Source of the DNA: a virus
Taxonomy: Duplodnaviria; Heunggongvirae; Uroviricota; Caudoviricetes
Virus record (IMG/VR): IMGVR_UViG_2529292726_000019
Reading direction: 5' to 3' (one strand)
DNA: 46,731 nt
Positions 26,420-44,204 of the stretch are shown in pieces. The notes under the pieces were generated by a model. That model was not told the origin of the DNA and made no database searches. It saw only the letters and a program-made list of their open reading frames with translations. A program made the position numbers and the translations under genes. Position 1 is the first letter of the stretch, and each line of letters opens with the position of its first letter.

Positions 26420-27357
26420 TACCTTTCGAATGGAAGAACAAACACTTCAAGGTCTTCAAGGAACGAACGGAAATTCAGCTCGTAGCACAGTTGCTCGAAT
26501 GCTTTCACGTCACGATTGCCTTTGATTGTTTCGATTTCGGTAGGCGGAAACTTCGTCTCAATCAGGTTCATTAGCGTGATGTTTCTCTTGAACGCTTCGA
26601 GCATTCGACAGCCTGTTTTCTCGTTGAAGGCATTCTTCGCTAGTTTGTTGAAGGCGGTCTTATGGCGTCCTTTGTCAACCACGATTGAGCCGTCGTTGAT
26701 GCCGCGTACCATCGTTGCGACACTTCCCCATTCATGCAGCAGCTCTTTCGCACCGCCAGCACCAATGCCACCAACACCGCTAATGTTGTCCGATTTATCG
26801 CCTTGTAATGCTTTTGCTTCCAAAAATGCGCGAGGAGTAGCGAATCCTGTCAGCTCCGCAAATTGCTCAAAATTAACCTGCTTGTTTTTGGCGTCTTCGC
26901 GCAGGCTTACCCAGCTTACGTTTTCGCGAACTAACTGAAGCCAGTCGCTATCGCCTGTTAACAGATAGATGTGTTCAACGATTGGCTGCGGTGCAATGCT
27001 GGCTACCAGCAGCCCGGCCAGATCATCCGCTTCTGCATCTTTTGCAATGAGTTGGGTAACTCCAAGCGCGGTCATCATTTTGAGGATGTATGGCTTCTGG
27101 ATAGCAAAGCCTTCCTTCATCTTTTTCATATCAGGATCGTCGTCGCGATTTGCTTTGTAGTCCGGGTAAAAGTCGCGACGCTTGTCACTAAATCCATCCC
27201 AAAGAATCATAGGTCGGGCATGGAGGATGGAGGCATAACGACGGACGTTCTTAACAAAGCCGAAAGCAGCCTGTACTTCCATTTCGCCGTTGTGCAATTT
27301 GTCAGATTGCTGGTGGTAATAACCCAGGCTATTGCCATCTACGAAGAGATAATTCAC
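26413..27357 (-). CDS. 5'-3' exonuclease / flap endonuclease
   Basis: NYLFVDGNSLG, KANRDD, TGDSDWLQLV, GDKSDNISGVGGIG motifs. Start moved to GTG at 27357 (RBS GGAAGGA) because the first 17 codons of the track ORF coincide with a terminator hairpin. Confidence 0.8.
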   Translation of the reverse strand: MNYLFVDGNSLGYYHQQSDKLHNGEMEVQAAFGFVKNVRRYASILHARPMILWDGFSDKRRDFYPDYKANRDDDPDMKKMKEGFAIQKPYILKMMTALGVTQLIAKDAEADDLAGLLVASIAPQPIVEHIYLLTGDSDWLQLVRENVSWVSLREDAKNKQVNFEQFAELTGFATPRAFLEAKALQGDKSDNISGVGGIGAGGAKELLHEWGSVATMVRGINDGSIVVDKGRHKTAFNKLAKNAFNEKTGCRMLEAFKRNITLMNLIETKFPPTEIETIKGNRDVKAFEQLCYELNFRSFLEDLEVFVLPFERYC

Positions 27358-27379
27358 CGGTACATTCCTTCCAAAAAGT

Positions 27380-27399
27380 AAGGCGTCCGTAGACGCCTT
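27380..27399 (-). terminator. rho-independent terminator aaggcgtcc-gta-gacgcctt
   Basis: Hairpin plus TTTTT on the minus strand after the SSB gene. Confidence 0.5.
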
Positions 27400-27417
27400 A
27401 CTGGTCACGTAATGGGA

Positions 27418-37196: not shown

Positions 37197-38294
37197 AAAA
37201 TTTACACGAATAAGCTCTGTTGATAGACGATCTCCCTTGAATTTGTGGTCAATTTCGTCTAAATCCGGTTGCTCTACGATTGATGCGATGTACGTCGAGA
37301 AACTTTCTAAGGCGTCTCGCATCTCGTCCATATAATCGTGCCGGTCGTAGACTCGATCTATCCCCTCAAGACTGTGGTTCATGATTTTGCGTGATACCTC
37401 CTGGCTTATGCCTAATGCTGGGAAGTAACTACGCGCAGTACGGCGCAAATCTCGGGGTGTAAATGGCTCAAGCTCCATCAGTTCTGGTCGTTCCAGAATA
37501 CGACGTAATGCCTGGGCTATTGCCACTTTAGACATAGGAAGGTCTTTCCCGATTTTTTTATTCGAAGGCACGAGCCACTGGCTGCCTTTACCGTATTCGA
37601 ACAACTCTTCAATACATGTGCGCATTAATGTGCTTAAAGGCAGCGAATGCTCACGGGCAGATTTGTTCCTCTTGCCTTGATTCCAAACCCCACGCTTAAG
37701 ATTGAACTCACTTTTTTTAGCCCGCAGTACTTCGTCAGGTCGTCTTGCGGATACAAGACACAGCCTGGCCGCCCATTTTGTACCAGCGCACACATTGAAG
37801 TAGTCCCATATATTCCAGAACACCCATACCTCTGCGTCGGTCAGCTTCCGCTCGCGAGGTGTGGGCTTTGCGCCACCGGCAACTTTGTTTAGTGACATAT
37901 CGTTTAACGGTGACACGTCTATCATCCCCTGGAAGGCGCACCAGCTAAGGAACTGCTTCATCAGAGAGAAAACGCGGCGGCCCATAACAATTTTGCCATC
38001 CAGTATTAGTGGGTTGACCAGTTGGTTCACCATGAACCTATTAATGTCACTTACTTTTACATCGGCAATGTGCGGCAAAACATGTATCAAAATACAATGA
38101 ACAGCGATCTCTGGCCGACGTCTGGTTATCAGCAGAGATAAGCGAGTGAATAACATGAATGCGTCCGAGAATCTCATGTCATTGCTGACCTGGGAGATCA
38201 TAACGGCCTGCATTTGAGATGCTCTTTCGAGATACTCAATCGCCTCTTTTGAGGTGTTCTCCGCAGCGCGTGCTCTGTCAAAGCTATTTTTCAT
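37191..38294 (-). CDS. tyrosine site-specific recombinase (integrase/Cre-like)
   Basis: C-terminal catalytic region ARRPDE...RDLRRTARSY...MNHS...YDRHDY consistent with the R-H-R-Y tetrad. Confidence 0.75.
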   Translation of the reverse strand: MKNSFDRARAAENTSKEAIEYLERASQMQAVMISQVSNDMRFSDAFMLFTRLSLLITRRRPEIAVHCILIHVLPHIADVKVSDINRFMVNQLVNPLILDGKIVMGRRVFSLMKQFLSWCAFQGMIDVSPLNDMSLNKVAGGAKPTPRERKLTDAEVWVFWNIWDYFNVCAGTKWAARLCLVSARRPDEVLRAKKSEFNLKRGVWNQGKRNKSAREHSLPLSTLMRTCIEELFEYGKGSQWLVPSNKKIGKDLPMSKVAIAQALRRILERPELMELEPFTPRDLRRTARSYFPALGISQEVSRKIMNHSLEGIDRVYDRHDYMDEMRDALESFSTYIASIVEQPDLDEIDHKFKGDRLSTELIRVNFS

Positions 38295-38392: not shown

Positions 38393-38425
38393 AATGATTC
38401 CATACATAGTAGGTATGGAATCATT
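38393..38425. repeat. 13-7-13 inverted repeat aatgattccatac-atagtag-gtatggaatcatt, candidate recombinase core site
   Basis: Perfect 13-bp arms with a 7-bp spacer, about 100 bp upstream of the recombinase start. Confidence 0.45.
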
Positions 38426-38561: not shown

Positions 38562-39116
38562 ATGCACTTGCATAAGTTGGTTACACCTGGTTTGGCTTCA
38601 TTGCCGGGTGATCTGTCATATTTAGATATAGACTTTGTTTTCTCTGGCAATGAAGCTCGTAAGGCTAGATACCGTTTAGTCTTTTGCCCTCCTTCTTTAG
38701 ATCCTGTTGCCGCAGAAACTATGCATAATATGTTAGGGGCTGATGTTTATGGGTTGTGTGTATCTGTCGTTAGTTTTGTGGACATGATTCAACTTGACAG
38801 GCAGCAAGAACAGCTCCAGAATGTCGCTCTTGGAGCGGAAGAGCCAATTAACGTATTTGCCAAACCCGAAGGGTCTTTTAATCTTACTTTAGGTGAACTT
38901 CAATACCTTTACGGTACTTTAGTTGACTTAATGCTCAAAGTTGCCGACAATGAAGGCATACAGATTTTATTCTTTGCGGCAGAACGCGAAGAACTGATGG
39001 CCACATACAAGAGATATGTGAAGAGATTTACACAAGAGCGTGGCCTAACTTATTTAAATGACGGAGCTTCCTATGCGATACGAACACAACACTACCCAAA
39101 ACAAAGGGAAGATTGA
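38562..39116 (+). CDS. hypothetical protein (184 aa)
   Basis: Plus-strand ORF followed by a terminator. Confidence 0.45.
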   Translation: MHLHKLVTPGLASLPGDLSYLDIDFVFSGNEARKARYRLVFCPPSLDPVAAETMHNMLGADVYGLCVSVVSFVDMIQLDRQQEQLQNVALGAEEPINVFAKPEGSFNLTLGELQYLYGTLVDLMLKVADNEGIQILFFAAEREELMATYKRYVKRFTQERGLTYLNDGASYAIRTQHYPKQRED

Positions 39117-40115: not shown

Positions 40116-40202
40116 TGGCGGAGAGTAATGGAATCGAACCATCATCGCTTGCGCAATGGGACGGTTTTCAAGACCGCTTGAGCACCATGCTCCCTACTCT
40201 CC
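40116..40202 (-). tRNA. tRNA-Ser (anticodon TGA), class II with long variable arm
   Basis: Acceptor GGAGAGT/ACTCTCC, anticodon loop CTTGAAA, T-loop TTCGATT, encoded CCA. Confidence 0.7.
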
Positions 40203-40346
40203 GGCCGTTGTGGTGGCCGGGACTGAATCTCCGGCATACGGTGCAGCCAATTAGGACTACGGACGATCACCGCTCGCGAAAGGGAAGATTTGCGGCCGCA
40301 TTTCCCTAACATCCAAGAAAGCTATCGCATCAGTCTGCGAATCCAC

Positions 40347-40425
40347 CACAACGGTAAGATCACTACCTTTCGACCAGTCATTGTGCACATGAACGACGAT
40401 TAACCGTAATGATCTTATCGTTGTG
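40347..40425 (-). ncRNA. structured hairpin element 1 (stem cacaacggtaagatca / tgatcttatcgttgtg)
   Basis: About 79-nt imperfect hairpin; paralogous to element 2 and sharing the 3' flank gttgtgttg. Confidence 0.3.
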
Positions 40426-40476
40426 TTGTGAAGCCAGATGCTTATCTTCTGGTTGCCTCAAAGAGCTGCACTTCCT

Positions 40477-40565
40477 CACAACGGTAAGAGCACTGGTCTG
40501 ACTCTATCGATTTACGGGCTTGTGGGTCAGTATCGCCGATTCGCCCAATGCACTTACCTGTTGTG
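40477..40565 (-). ncRNA. structured hairpin element 2 (stem cacaacggtaag / cttacctgttgtg) abutting the 3' end of tRNA-Thr
   Basis: About 89-nt imperfect hairpin; does not fold as a tRNA by eye. Confidence 0.3.
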
Positions 40566-40566
40566 T

Positions 40567-40643
40567 TGGTGCCGGTTAACGGACTCGAACCGCTGACATC
40601 CTGCTTACAAGGCAGGCGCTCTACCAACTGAGCTAAACCGGCA
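40567..40643 (-). tRNA. tRNA-Thr (anticodon TGT)
   Basis: Reverse complement TGCCGGTTTAGCTCAGTTGGTAGAGCGCCTGCCTTGTAAGCAGGATGTCAGCGGTTCGAGTCCGTTAACCGGCACCA folds as a cloverleaf. Confidence 0.8.
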
Positions 40644-40646
40644 ATT

Positions 40647-40733
40647 TGGTGGGGAGTGATGGAGTCGAACCACCCGAGTCGCCATGACAGTAGATTTACA
40701 GTCTACCCCGCTGCCCCTACGGACTAACTCCCC
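40647..40733 (-). tRNA. tRNA-Tyr (anticodon GTA), long variable arm
   Basis: Acceptor GGGGAGT/ACTCCCC, anticodon stem-loop GTAGA-CTGTAAA-TCTAC, T-loop TTCGACT, CCA encoded. Confidence 0.8.
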
Positions 40734-40738
40734 TAAAT

Positions 40739-40813
40739 TGGCGATGGTGGGTGGATTCGAACCACCGACCAGTTGGTTAACAGCCAACTGCTCTACCGCT
40801 GAGCTACACCATC
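40739..40813 (-). tRNA. tRNA-Asn (anticodon GTT)
   Basis: Reverse complement GATGGTGTAGCTCAGCGGTAGAGCAGTTGGCTGTTAACCAACTGGTCGGTGGTTCGAATCCACCCACCATCGCCA. Confidence 0.8.
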
Positions 40814-41591
40814 AATTCAGCACTGCCAGTATTTATTACTCAACAGTGCCAATCGCGACGGTTTAGTTTCTGCCAGGAAACGCACCGCTACTTGCACTTT
40901 TCGTTAGTGCCAGACGCTTTCGACTTCGCTCAATAGTAGAAGGCAAAATCTTTAAGTAGATGATGTTTCTGAGGACAGCACCTACTTTGTAATTTATACA
41001 ATGTGATGTATGGAATCATTTGTTGTGAAAACAGGCACCAATGGCAACAGTGGTTAAACCTACACAACAATCCTGTCTTCACAACGTTGAGGCCACTACT
41101 CCGATTGAATGTTTGCCCAACATGTTACATATCAACGCTCGCCGGTATCTCTGTGAATAGAACCTTAGAATTGATAAAAATGTAATGGCCTCAACGTTAT
41201 GTGCTGGCTAACCATACCAGCCGGGCTACGTCGCCGCTTTTTAACCCAGTATAAACGACATAATTGAACAAAATGACGTAACAGGATGGGCGGTCAGTGG
41301 CTAAGAATCCGGGAGTCATATGGAGTTGAAAATATACCAACCGCCCATTCTGTTACTTCATCGGAGGGAACATGAATGTTCCCTCCTGCGTTCTGCAATC
41401 ACACTCGCTCAGTGTGTCCCATTTCGGTAACGAGGCTGGAAACTGACCTCGCTGGTGTTTGGCTTATTAGGCTACTGCCAGATAGACTTCTTCGTTTGCA
41501 CTTGTATTTAAGTTCAAACAGTCGCGTCTCAACGAAAACAAAGTCATCTTATACACAAAAGATAAGTAAGTAAATACTTATCAATATGTTT

Positions 41592-41882
41592 TTATTCGGT
41601 TGTGACTTTTTTGATCAAGGCCACTCTACGACTAGGTGTTCTTGTGATGGTGGCAGTGAATCGTTTCGCTTGGATAGTAATGGTTTCGTTCTCCTTAAGT
41701 TGCCCGTAGCGAGTTTCCACCAGGGTGCCAAGACGCCACAGACCATCATCGATACGTTTATGACTAGCAAATTTAATCAGCAACAGTTTTACGACTAACT
41801 GACCTACGTAAAAGGCGAATGCGACTCCGGCCGCTAAGAAATAGGTGGCCAACCACCAGTCCCAAGAAGTTAAATTGCTCAT
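41592..41882 (-). CDS. membrane protein (96 aa), member of a small tandem paralogous family
   Basis: N-terminal TM helix WWLATYFLAAGVAFAFYVGQLVV and a basic tail. Confidence 0.5.
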   Translation of the reverse strand: MSNLTSWDWWLATYFLAAGVAFAFYVGQLVVKLLLIKFASHKRIDDGLWRLGTLVETRYGQLKENETITIQAKRFTATITRTPSRRVALIKKVTTE

Positions 41883-42031
41883 TTTCTAACCTTTGTTTCA
41901 TGAACTACCCGATACACACGCTTTCCGATGCATAGTGTTTTGGTTTTAAGTTCCTGCTTAATTAAATCACGACAGATGCCGAAGCCAATAAGGAAGCCAC
42001 CCATAAAAGCTAATGAGATGTATGGAATCAT
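41879..42031 (-). CDS. small membrane protein (50 aa, below the ORF-track cutoff), paralog
   Basis: Hand-translated MIPYISLAFMGGFLIGFGICRDLIKQELKTKTLCIGKRVYRVVHETKVRK; ATGA-coupled to the 96-aa gene. Confidence 0.3.
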   Translation of the reverse strand: MIPYISLAFMGGFLIGFGICRDLIKQELKTKTLCIGKRVYRVVHETKVRK

Positions 42032-42243
42032 TTTAACGCTCCTGATTCTACTAATTGCTGTAGCAATACTTTCCCTTTATCAGTTAACTGGTAGTTGGCC
42101 GAACACTTCGTTTCAGAAACGTTTGCAACCAACCCTAAACGCTCTAACTTAGCTCGCGTTTTAGGCTTCCAGTACTCAGGGAACTCCGGCCACTTACTGA
42201 TTTCATGAAGCGTTTCCTTCTCCCGTTTACTTAATACGATCAT
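42028..42243 (-). CDS. hypothetical protein (71 aa)
   Basis: ORF; start overlaps the end of the upstream small ORF. Confidence 0.45.
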   Translation of the reverse strand: MIVLSKREKETLHEISKWPEFPEYWKPKTRAKLERLGLVANVSETKCSANYQLTDKGKVLLQQLVESGALK

Positions 42244-42406
42244 CCTTAATCTCCTTCACTGTGTGGGTTATTTCTACAATGCGATAAATACGACCGCGTC
42301 GTTCTATAACACCGCTTTTAATGTAGTCATTGATGCAACTGGACATCACCACAATACCTATGAAAAAACCAACTGCTAAAAATGCAATCATCCAGCCGAG
42401 CATCAT
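42227..42406 (-). CDS. small membrane protein (59 aa, below the ORF-track cutoff), paralog
   Basis: Hand-translated MMLGWMIAFLAVGFFIGIVVMSSCINDYIKSGVIERRGRIYRIVEITHTVKEIKDDRIK, sharing the GxRxYRxVE tail with the 50-aa paralog. Confidence 0.3.
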   Translation of the reverse strand: MMLGWMIAFLAVGFFIGIVVMSSCINDYIKSGVIERRGRIYRIVEITHTVKEIKDDRIK

Positions 42407-43725
42407 TCTTTATCTCCGATTCGATCTTCTGTATCGCGTAAGCAACGCGGCCATTTCAGTCGTGGGTGGCGTAAGCTGCCGTCCGGTGTTTTCTCGTGAC
42501 AATGAACCTCGACAATACGACCACGGTACTTCTCTTTGTTGTTCCAGATCTCATCCAGATATTTATGCTTAATGCCGCTCGCACGAACGATGACGCCGTT
42601 TTCAAGACGAATAACAATTTTTCCAAGTGTGTTGGCAAAACCAGAGTCCGGGTCGCCCGGCTCAAAGTCGATAATTTCACCATCTTCTGAATCTTCGTCT
42701 TTTAACTTCCACCAGCTGCGGGTACGTTTAAACTCGTAAACAGAGTTCGGATCTTTGCCCATCTCCCCTTCTTCGTTATCGTCCAGGCGTTTCATGAAGC
42801 GTTCGATGAAGTCTTCGTGGCTATGGATGATATAGAACGGATGCAGGTGAATGTCTTGTGTGTAGCCTTCACTGCGATCGTTTTTGAACAACGCCACCAG
42901 CATAGCCAGGCGCTCTTTCAGCTTCATACCTGTCTTTGCATACTCTTTGGATTTAGCCTGTGCTCGCCATTCCGGTAGGAAGAAGTCGAAAACATGATAA
43001 ATAGCGCCAATTGCCTGCACGTTCTTTTTGCGCAATGCAGATACGGACTGGTTAAATGAACCGGCAGTTCCTTCACCATCGAAGAAGATGTGTTTGTGGC
43101 CTGAAAGTTTGCCTAATTCGAGCATTGCTGGCTTTAGGTGATCGAGAGACGTGATTGGATTACCAGTACGAGAAAGGAAGTTAACCTCTTCCTCGTCAAC
43201 AATAACCTCGCAAATTACTCGCAAACCATCGAGCTTAAGACTGCCAATCATCGGCCATTTTGCTTTAGGATTTGGCTTGAAGGGGTATTTGTCGCCTTTT
43301 TCTTTATACGGTGACGCCAGCTGCACCTCGAATTTCGGAATGGGATTTTCAAAAACCTTGTTGCATAGGCTAATCCCAACACCTGCTTTCGGGTCTTTTA
43401 AGAGGAAACGACGGAACACGTCCTGCCCATCGGCGCACATTGACGCCACGATAGACTCAACAGCTGCTATTGCTGCGTTCCCCGTTAGCTCGCGAGAGGC
43501 CAGCTTATTCAGTACATCAATGGCTTTTTCGTCACTTGGGATGGACTCACTAAGCGGCTCTGCCACTTTGTATTTCTTTACCCCAAAACGGATGAAAGGG
43601 TTGAGCATCAATGAAACCATGCTTTGCTCGAAGTCATCCATGTTGGCCAATGCCTCTTTTTTTGCATTGGTTCCCATAGCTTTCATTTCGTCCAGCTTAT
43701 GCTTAAGTGCGATCAACTTTTTCAT
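42403..43725 (-). CDS. ATP-dependent DNA ligase
   Basis: Motif I KLDGLR (SLKLDGLRVICEV) and nucleotidyltransferase/OB-fold layout. Confidence 0.8.
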   Translation of the reverse strand: MKKLIALKHKLDEMKAMGTNAKKEALANMDDFEQSMVSLMLNPFIRFGVKKYKVAEPLSESIPSDEKAIDVLNKLASRELTGNAAIAAVESIVASMCADGQDVFRRFLLKDPKAGVGISLCNKVFENPIPKFEVQLASPYKEKGDKYPFKPNPKAKWPMIGSLKLDGLRVICEVIVDEEEVNFLSRTGNPITSLDHLKPAMLELGKLSGHKHIFFDGEGTAGSFNQSVSALRKKNVQAIGAIYHVFDFFLPEWRAQAKSKEYAKTGMKLKERLAMLVALFKNDRSEGYTQDIHLHPFYIIHSHEDFIERFMKRLDDNEEGEMGKDPNSVYEFKRTRSWWKLKDEDSEDGEIIDFEPGDPDSGFANTLGKIVIRLENGVIVRASGIKHKYLDEIWNNKEKYRGRIVEVHCHEKTPDGSLRHPRLKWPRCLRDTEDRIGDKE

Positions 43726-44204
43726 TGTTGTTTTACCTCCATATGTTGATCGATTTGCTCATGTGTTTCTTTTGTTGTTTCTTCAAGCAACGCCGCATAC
43801 ACGTCAGTGATCGCTGTTTGTGATGTGGTGCTCTTCTTAACCATGCTATTAATCGTTACACTGTCACGTTTTCGTTTTAAAGTTCTGGCTTGTTTATTCC
43901 GTTCTTCAACCTCCTTAATGAGCGCGGTCATATCTTCGAAATACAGAGATTCTCCTTTACGAATCTCTTCAACCATCATTTTTAACGCCTTGCATTTGCC
44001 TGCTTTGATAGCGGTTGCGCACGACTGGAATGAAGTTCGAGGAAGACGGTTTTCTTTGAAGGCAAGAATGGTGTGCTGGCAAACGGAGTAGCTGCAATAT
44101 GCCGACTCACCGTTTATCTTTACTTCCTCACAACGAAGTGAATAACCATTATTTCCTGAAATAGAGGGGATTTTTGACAAATCAGCTTTCACAACTACCG
44201 CCAT
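43722..44204 (-). CDS. hypothetical protein (160 aa)
   Basis: ORF with several Cys residues; stop/start coupled with the ligase gene. Confidence 0.5.
   Translation of the reverse strand: MAVVVKADLSKIPSISGNNGYSLRCEEVKINGESAYCSYSVCQHTILAFKENRLPRTSFQSCATAIKAGKCKALKMMVEEIRKGESLYFEDMTALIKEVEERNKQARTLKRKRDSVTINSMVKKSTTSQTAITDVYAALLEETTKETHEQIDQHMEVKQQ

Follow-up and report, generated by a model that had tools for sequence, protein, structure and literature searches.

Small membrane-protein genes coupled to the DNA ligase gene of an SSU5-like phage-plasmid, and a dispersed 15-nucleotide element beside them

At the distal end of a helicase–primase–ligase module in a tailed-phage genome (Caudoviricetes) is a block of four short genes, referred to here as A59, B71, C50 and D96, three of which encode bitopic membrane proteins. 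The block was identified in IMG/VR record IMGVR_UViG_2529292726_000019, a stretch of 46,731 nucleotides (nt) called here the window. Over positions 40800–43800 the window shares 98.8% identity with Escherichia phage Cyrano (the pLF82 phage-plasmid) and 78.6% with Salmonella phage SSU5. The block itself (41592–42406) is 100% identical to E. coli plasmid CP025888 and matches 752 records in PLSDB, from Klebsiella, Escherichia, Enterobacter, Salmonella, Yersinia (pMT1), Citrobacter and Cronobacter. On the strength of these phage identities and plasmid matches, the window is assigned to the SSU5-like phage-plasmids of E. coli.

The four-gene block

All four genes lie on the minus strand, in the same translationally coupled string as the upstream gene for an ATP-dependent DNA ligase (42403–43725, minus strand; PF01068, E value 5.8e-13). 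Closest to the ligase gene is A59 (42227–42406), encoding a 59-residue bitopic membrane protein of PHROG 4381, function unknown. Inserted between A59 and its paralogue C50 (41879–42031; 50 residues, bitopic, PHROG 6302) is B71 (42028–42243; PHROG 4054), encoding a soluble protein of 71 residues with weak winged-helix similarity, and at the end of the block is D96 (41592–41882; PHROG 4507), encoding a third bitopic membrane protein, of 96 residues. A first-pass annotation of this DNA had described the open reading frames (ORFs) of 59, 50 and 96 residues as adjacent; all three are present on the minus strand, but A59 and C50 are separated by the non-membrane B71. Consecutive genes overlap by 4 nt (ligase/A59), 17 nt (A59/B71), 4 nt (B71/C50) and 4 nt (C50/D96), and each of the four is preceded by a Shine–Dalgarno sequence; coupling of their translation from the DNA ligase gene is directly supported.

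A59 and C50 as one family

Each of A59, C50 and D96 has one strongly hydrophobic N-terminal segment of 19 residues (Kyte–Doolittle means of 2.55, 1.84 and 2.00, respectively), placing the transmembrane helix at residues 7–25 of A59, 2–20 of C50 and approximately 18–36 of D96. No lysine or arginine precedes the segment in any of the three, and the C-terminal part carries a net charge of +3 in A59, +7 in C50 and +7 in D96; by the positive-inside rule, the proteins are therefore predicted to be N-out/C-in, with a periplasmic part of 1–17 residues and a basic cytoplasmic tail. The architecture originally proposed for the three proteins, a single N-terminal membrane segment followed by a basic C-terminal part, is found in all of them by hydropathy and charge counts.

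Alignment of the A59 orthologues with the C50 orthologues (hhalign) gives an E value of 4.7e-6 and a probability of 86% over 47 gapless columns, and the tails stripped of the membrane helix align over RGRIYRIVEITH / GKRVYRVVHETK (E value of 8.8e-4). In controls made by shuffling alignment columns, which preserves architecture and composition, the observed score was reached in 0 of 150 shuffles for the full-length proteins (29.8 versus 11.8 ± 2.9) and 0 of 150 for the tails (16.7 versus 8.5 ± 2.1). As these scores are unmatched by the shuffles, the relatedness exceeds chance, and by this comparison A59 and C50 are paralogues belonging to one family, although PHROGs holds them apart (4381 and 6302).

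Invariant in the joint alignment (A59 numbering) are M2, R39, Y41 and R42, and conserved in at least 90% of sequences are G13, G17 and T47. Common to both proteins are a GxxxG-type membrane helix (G13xxxG17 in A59) and the tail motif R-[IV]-Y-R-[IV]-V-x-x-T, which reads R39-I-Y41-R42-I-V-E-I-T47 in A59 and G-K-R-V-Y-R-V-V-H-E-T in C50. The motif first drawn for all three proteins, G-x-R-x-Y-R-x-V-E, is a loose description of C50, an approximate one of A59 and not applicable to D96. Bridging sequences from a profile search of 1.84 billion proteins (P0111, P0113, P0116 and P0122) combine a C-type MIPYI N terminus with A-type linkers or tails, such as KSGIVRFGNRVYRVVHET and RRRVYRVVEIT. An AlphaFold2 model of A59 (predicted local distance difference test, pLDDT, of 71) consists of a single helix with a poorly supported tail.

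Two other assignments were considered for these proteins and rejected. A59 was assessed as a lipoprotein on account of a VVMSSC stretch followed by IND, but its N-region has no positive charge, its hydrophobic stretch is about 20 residues long, the Cronobacter orthologue has lost the cysteine, and no lipobox is present in the C50 group. C50 was assessed as Hok-like (…TLCIGKRVYR…); the corresponding Hok segment is LCEIRYR, the cysteine is an arginine in most C50 orthologues, and there is no Pfam match.

D96 and B71

D96 is not detectably related to either paralogue. Its hhalign probabilities against A59 and C50 are 0.4% and 1.2% at full length and about 0.2% for the tails, and a search of D96 for the Y-R motif found none. 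The earlier proposal of a single paralogous family thus stands for A59 and C50 and fails for D96, which, judged by these comparisons, has only its architecture in common with them. A D96 hairpin (AKRFTATITRT) can be aligned to the A59/C50 motif in a visually suggestive way, but the alignment has no statistical support and was discarded. The AlphaFold2 model of D96, of low confidence (pLDDT of 63), comprises a helix (residues 6–61), a β-hairpin (67–71/76–80) and a disordered basic end.

Orthologues of D96 are named ‘C-type natriuretic protein’ in SSU5 and in many RefSeq and GenBank plasmid records, and one cluster at 90% identity holds 604 member sequences. Neither Pfam nor NCBIfam supports this product name, which seems to be an annotation error that has been propagated.

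B71 lacks a hydrophobic segment. Its residues 33–66 show weak but consistent winged-helix matches, to HTH_45 and EarA (E value of 0.057) and to the C-terminal winged helix-turn-helix of Csa3 (E value of 0.0011); a sequence search of the PDB gave no match. In Cyrano, B71 is annotated as ‘putative transcriptional regulator’.

Conservation and distribution

Orthologues of all four genes are annotated in SSU5 (SSU5_045–048), pJN2-26, pMT1 and many plasmids, with amino-acid identities of 60–80% from Y. pestis pMT1 to Klebsiella plasmids. In every pairwise comparison the proportion of nonsynonymous differences (pN) is far below that of synonymous differences (pS), and the ratio of the corresponding substitution rates (dN/dS) is 0.08–0.31 where dS is unsaturated: 0.08–0.15 for A59, 0.12–0.31 for C50 and approximately 0.09–0.10 for D96. 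For B71, pN is 0.20–0.28 against pS of 0.74–0.93. Each of the four proteins matches its own PHROG (4381, 4054, 6302 and 4507 for A59, B71, C50 and D96) end to end, with E values of 1e-37 to 1e-59.

The full four-gene block is present in 80 of the 97 loci examined, a sample biased by the fetching of most loci through A59. A distant lineage (loci L094–L112) keeps the four-slot arrangement; its A59 homologue is 39% identical, and its fourth slot is occupied by an 83-residue transmembrane protein that has no BLAST similarity to D96.

That these ORFs arose by chance, or are functionless remnants in decay, might be supposed from the length of two of them (under 60 residues), from the lack of annotation for A59 in Cyrano, and from the plasmids that lack one or more of the ORFs. 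This reading is already refuted by the conservation data, and we give it a negligible share of the probability: purifying selection acts in all pairwise comparisons, every gene has a Shine–Dalgarno sequence and coupled stop and start codons, the four-slot order is preserved at 39% identity, and each protein has a PHROG of its own. Lack of conservation and of any coding signature, which the first-pass annotation had named as grounds for doubting the genes, is the opposite of what is seen, with pN far below pS and 752 matching plasmid records.

The family is confined to a narrow group of replicons in the databases searched. When A59, D96 and C50 were searched against 5.8 billion proteins with a word index, the matches were orthologues from the same plasmid group only; an A59/C50 profile search of 1.84 billion representative proteins gave 23 matches, all within one supergroup; and a scan of GTDB species genomes gave two Kluyvera loci only. 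Scans of the four proteins against Pfam, NCBIfam and PADLOC found nothing significant for A59, C50 or D96.

Fused reading frames occur in deletion variants of the block. In two Klebsiella plasmids (L010, 1883–2131; L011, 1882–2130) the ligase N terminus (about 65 residues) is joined to the last residues of B71, and in a Buttiauxella plasmid (L013, 1719–1892) a 57-residue hybrid joins the C50 N terminus (MIPYIM…) to the end of the D96 helix (…KFASHKRI). From these fusions, the block seems to be a deletion hotspot between its short similar segments.

Expression in the lysogen and lysis context

Expression data for the block come from the lysogen E. coli LF82(Cyrano), in which B71, C50 and D96 are the only genes of the block to be annotated (CYRAN_37, CYRAN_38 and CYRAN_39). 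Their normalised RNA-sequencing counts are 6.4, 5.0 and 7.6, compared with 5.9 for the ligase, 7–8 for the terminase, 96 for the repressor and 7084 for CYRAN_43 (PMC9928086 S1 Table); the block is thus as quiet in the lysogen as the neighbouring replication genes and the structural genes. For C50, log2(FPKM+5) is 2.32, which equals zero fragments per kilobase per million (FPKM), in both lysogeny broth (LB) replicates (PMC9928086 S1 Table), and CYRAN_37–39 are missing from the list of morons in that study (PMC9928086). Owing to these background counts, the genes are likely to belong to the lytic programme rather than to the lysogenic-conversion genes; being silent in the lysogen, they would supply no protein able to protect it.

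The lysis genes are located elsewhere. A complete holin–endolysin–Rz/Rz1 cassette is found at 26739–28157 in Cyrano, at SSU5_026–030 and at pJN226_0077–0080, at a distance from the block of about 10 kilobases (kb) in Cyrano to 13 kb in SSU5. This location, together with the coupling of the genes to the ligase in the replication module, makes it improbable that A59, C50 and D96 are holins, antiholins or lysis-timing proteins that build up in the inner membrane and set off or postpone the opening of holes, a role that the first-pass annotation had put forward. They do resemble holins and antiholins such as lambda S and T4 T and RI in small size, in having at least one transmembrane helix and in a charged C terminus, but small size, one transmembrane helix and a charged C-terminal tail are generic traits that do not discriminate. 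D96 has a marginal match to the holin family phrog_2359 (E value of 0.019), which is not significant and covers residues 8–34, the hydrophobic helix alone; no Pfam holin family matches A59, C50 or D96. T4 T and RI differ from the three proteins, of which hardly any part would be periplasmic in the predicted N-out/C-in topology.

The first-pass annotation had also suggested exclusion or toxin-like factors. Background expression argues against an exclusion protein or addiction toxin expressed in the lysogen, and leaves lytic-phase exclusion or toxic takeover as a possibility. In that case, small inner-membrane proteins produced early after induction or infection would bind and block a host membrane machine, in superinfection exclusion or host takeover, with a DNA-entry route, a transporter, the divisome or a protease as candidate targets; comparable proteins would be T4 Imm and Sp, and small regulatory membrane proteins such as AcrZ and SidA. 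Small bitopic proteins with a GxxxG-type helix are suited to helix–helix binding, the genes belong to an operon of early or replication functions, individual members can be missing from plasmids as accessory genes, and their restriction to one Enterobacterales phage-plasmid supergroup (23 representatives in 1.84 billion proteins) fits a host-specific interaction. Set against this are the conservation, which is strongest in the cytoplasmic tail and not in the helix, a periplasmic part of just 1–17 residues, the lack of a PADLOC defence-model match for A59, C50 or D96, and the lack of expression in the lysogen. We regard such a role as possible, if somewhat unlikely.

A dispersed 15-nt element

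Near position 41020 the first-pass annotation had placed a truncated fourth copy of the membrane-protein family. The similarity to the C50 start at this position extends over 22 nt (21 of 22 identical); it is a nucleotide element, not a gene remnant. The 15-nt core of the similarity, the element ATGATTCCATACATC, forms codons 1–5 of C50 (MIPYI) at 42017–42031 on the minus strand, and its second copy is at 41005–41019, also on the minus strand and with no conserved ORF behind it. Each of the 15 relatives first examined carries ATGATTCCATACATC unchanged at the C50 start, and 10 of them carry it unchanged a second time roughly 1 kb downstream, where the ORF that follows ends after 5–6 codons. Codons 2–5 of C50 show 2 synonymous variants in 168 codon instances (42 distinct genes), compared with approximately 25–50% at many other codons.

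Another copy lies on the plus strand at 32363–32377, antisense within the gene for the alpha subunit of DNA polymerase III, dnaE (29121–32627, minus strand). It is identical to the C50 start over 20 of 20 nt in the window, and its 15 nt are exact in SSU5 and pJN2-26 despite differing flanking codons, which indicates that the codons for C-M-E-S are frozen. Owing to the antisense orientation of this copy, the dnaE messenger RNA (mRNA) is complementary to the translation start of C50.

The remaining copies form an inverted pair. This is a palindrome of 31 base pairs at 38394–38424, with perfect 12-nt arms and a 7-nt spacer (ATGATTCCATAC-ATAGTAG-GTATGGAATCAT), situated 100 nt upstream of a gene for a tyrosine recombinase (37191–38294, minus strand; PF00589). 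It occupies the divergent region between the recombinase gene and an ORF of 184 residues (38562–39116, plus strand), which corresponds in Cyrano to CYRAN_43, the most highly expressed gene of the lysogen. The whole Cyrano genome contains five copies of the element, all within about 10 kb. Both pJN2-26 and the distant lineage also pair the palindrome with a recombinase gene; the arms are unchanged there and the spacers differ. At the start of its C50 homologue the distant lineage has TTGATCCCATATCTT, which preserves the peptide MIPY and not the element, and its downstream copy is kept as GTGATTCCATACATC, 15 nt (L096) or 26 nt (L105) past the end of the tRNA-Gln gene (tRNA, transfer RNA).

On its arrangement, the palindrome looks like a core site of the lox/FRT type, possibly serving dimer resolution, or like an operator. 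On the simplest reading, the 15-nt element would be a half-site, either of the core-type site of the recombinase or of an operator for another protein, and the supposed fourth copy would be one of these half-sites.

The freezing of the first 15 nt of C50 at the nucleotide level, and the hydrophobic character of its 50-residue product, invite comparison of C50, and perhaps of A59, with type I toxins (Hok/Gef, TisB, Zor and Ldr); the translation start of C50 would then be controlled through the element by an antisense RNA or a protein bound there. Exact complements to the start exist in the dnaE mRNA and would also be carried by a transcript of either strand across the palindrome. C50 differs from such toxins in lying inside a long coupled operon; no separate promoter or leader is apparent for it, the stop codon of B71 is overlapped by its ATG, and a scan of both strands over 40800–42500 found no sigma-70-like promoter. 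No dedicated gene for a small RNA (sRNA) or antisense RNA was identified. The mRNA of an addiction toxin would be expected to be detectable, whereas C50 has zero reads in the LB overnight samples of the lysogen. Neither Pfam nor NCBIfam contains a match to Hok/Gef, Ldr, TisB or similar families, and the distant lineage keeps the C50 peptide and not the element. We consider a type I toxin very unlikely. A plus-strand sRNA promoter near the second copy of the element was also sought and rejected: none appeared in the promoter scan, and the aligned hexamers lack a conserved A2.

A tmRNA-like RNA and a tRNA cluster

Downstream of the D96 stop codon, between it and a tRNA cluster, is a conserved stretch on the minus strand (about 41200–41590) resembling a transfer-messenger RNA (tmRNA). 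Its tag frame, running from 41499 to 41467 and followed by a second UAA, reads GCA AAC GAA GAA GUC UAU CUG GCA GUA GCC UAA UAA (ANEEVYLAVA). All 14 further loci that were examined retain the tag, as ANEDTYLAVA, ANDNQYLAVA, ANEDAYLAVA or ANDDVVLMAA, with variants that show synonymous and conservative changes, and the stretch as a whole is conserved above the surrounding genes and includes an invariant run of 34 nt.

Rfam tmRNA models align to the tag region, weakly in the window; the tmRNA_permuted match in the distant relative L096 (39.9 bits, E value of 5e-5) is under the gathering score of 47. ARAGORN detects the RNA at the relaxed threshold -ps70 only. In an RNAalifold alignment of 9 sequences, compensatory changes occur in 10 of 102 pairs of the tmRNA-like helices. 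A canonical T-arm, GCGGGTTCGATTCCCGC, follows the tag by about 330 nt in L112, and the main lineage has a T-arm-like hairpin alone, with the loop UUGGUUA. Taken at the level of sequence and predicted pairing, the RNA is probably a divergent phage-plasmid tmRNA. It is unannotated in Cyrano, SSU5 and pJN2-26, and no paper in the library searched ties a tmRNA to the SSU5-like phage-plasmid lineage.

Between the tmRNA-like RNA and the second 15-nt copy are two long minus-strand hairpins, one with 20-nt arms (41080–41099 and 41182–41201, 82 nt apart) and one with 14-nt arms (41022–41035 and 41072–41085) that abuts the second 15-nt copy. Their arms (41022–41201) are partly invariant across relatives, and the hairpins might serve in processing or termination, or might belong to the tmRNA-like gene itself.

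Flanking the second copy of the 15-nt element are the tmRNA-like RNA and tRNA-Asn, the latter belonging to a minus-strand cluster of four tRNA genes at 40116–40813 (Ser-UGA, Thr-UGU, Tyr-GUA and Asn-GUU). The tRNA content varies between relatives: only Asn is present in SSU5, Tyr is missing from Cyrano, and in the distant lineage Phe and Gln are found instead, upstream of the 15-mer. Variable tRNA cassettes flank the element on either side.

Discussion

Among the roles considered for A59, C50 and D96, we tentatively and with low confidence favour a tethering or adaptor function at the membrane during the lytic phase over holin or toxin activity. Through the small-xxx-small face of the helix (G13xxxG17), A59 and C50 would associate with themselves or with a partner inside the membrane, and the invariant tail motif R-Φ-Y-R-Φ-V-x-x-T, held at the inner face of the membrane, would bind a cytoplasmic partner. 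The most plausible partners for the tail would be the co-translated winged-helix protein B71, the replicating phage DNA or replisome, or both. The outcome would be the localisation or sequestration of the partner at the membrane during lytic development, and not the formation of a pore. In support of tethering, the most conserved positions are those of the tail motif together with G13 and G17, and B71 is wedged between the two paralogues, overlapping both.

A comparable arrangement is known from phage phi29. In its protein p16.7, a membrane anchor at the N terminus leads into a cytoplasmic portion to which DNA and the terminal protein bind. Like p16.7 and p1, the proteins A59, C50 and D96 are small and are encoded in an early or replication gene setting, with an N-terminal anchor and a basic cytoplasmic part; they differ in the Gram-negative host, in a replication that is not protein-primed and in much shorter tails (25–60 residues). 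The likeness is known here from gene layout, and means that the proteins may work like p16.7 and p1, not that they are members of the same family. In phi29 replication, the early membrane proteins p1 and p16.7 have been proposed as anchors (PMC4974454).

Several points weigh against tethering. The mechanism is drawn from layout and context alone, the topology from hydropathy and the positive-inside rule, and the lytic-cycle timing from operon position. There is no Pfam match to a p16.7- or p1-type family, p16.7 and p1 themselves not having been compared directly. The structure models are weak (pLDDT of 63 for D96 and 71 for A59), and AlphaFold2 models the A59 tail as helical, whereas a strand is indicated by its sequence. 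Parts of the block are also lost in individual plasmids: L005 lacks A59; L010 and L011 lack the ligase, A59 and B71; and L008, L009 and L014 lack most of C50 together with D96. Such losses imply that the parts of the block are not strictly interdependent.

A more elaborate version, which we hold to be improbable, is a membrane-sequestration switch peculiar to SSU5-like phage-plasmids, in which the tails of A59 and C50 would capture B71 or nascent DNA, and the synthesis of C50 would be gated by the recombinase or another factor at the 15-nt half-site. If true, recombinase occupancy would be tied to the lytic replication programme. The probability left beyond the readings given above belongs to something else.

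All four proteins are already catalogued as hypothetical or PHROG sequences. What is new is the merging of two PHROGs into one motif-defined family from which D96 is excluded, the reinterpretation of the supposed fourth copy, and the lytic-phase, non-lysis context of the genes. Small hypothetical phage membrane proteins alone are fairly ordinary, and would not surprise a specialist; the tmRNA-like gene and the lox-like site with its dispersed half-sites are probably more interesting than the membrane proteins.

SSU5-like phage-plasmids include Y. pestis pMT1 and the Salmonella plasmids described as pHCM2-like, and are very common in clinical E. coli, Klebsiella and Enterobacter. The A59–D96 block is one of the few fully conserved and wholly uncharacterised parts of their replication module. 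The A59/C50 family, with its defined cytoplasmic motif, offers a concrete target for mutagenesis, and the placing of these lytic-phase genes outside the lysis cassette narrows the search for their phenotype.

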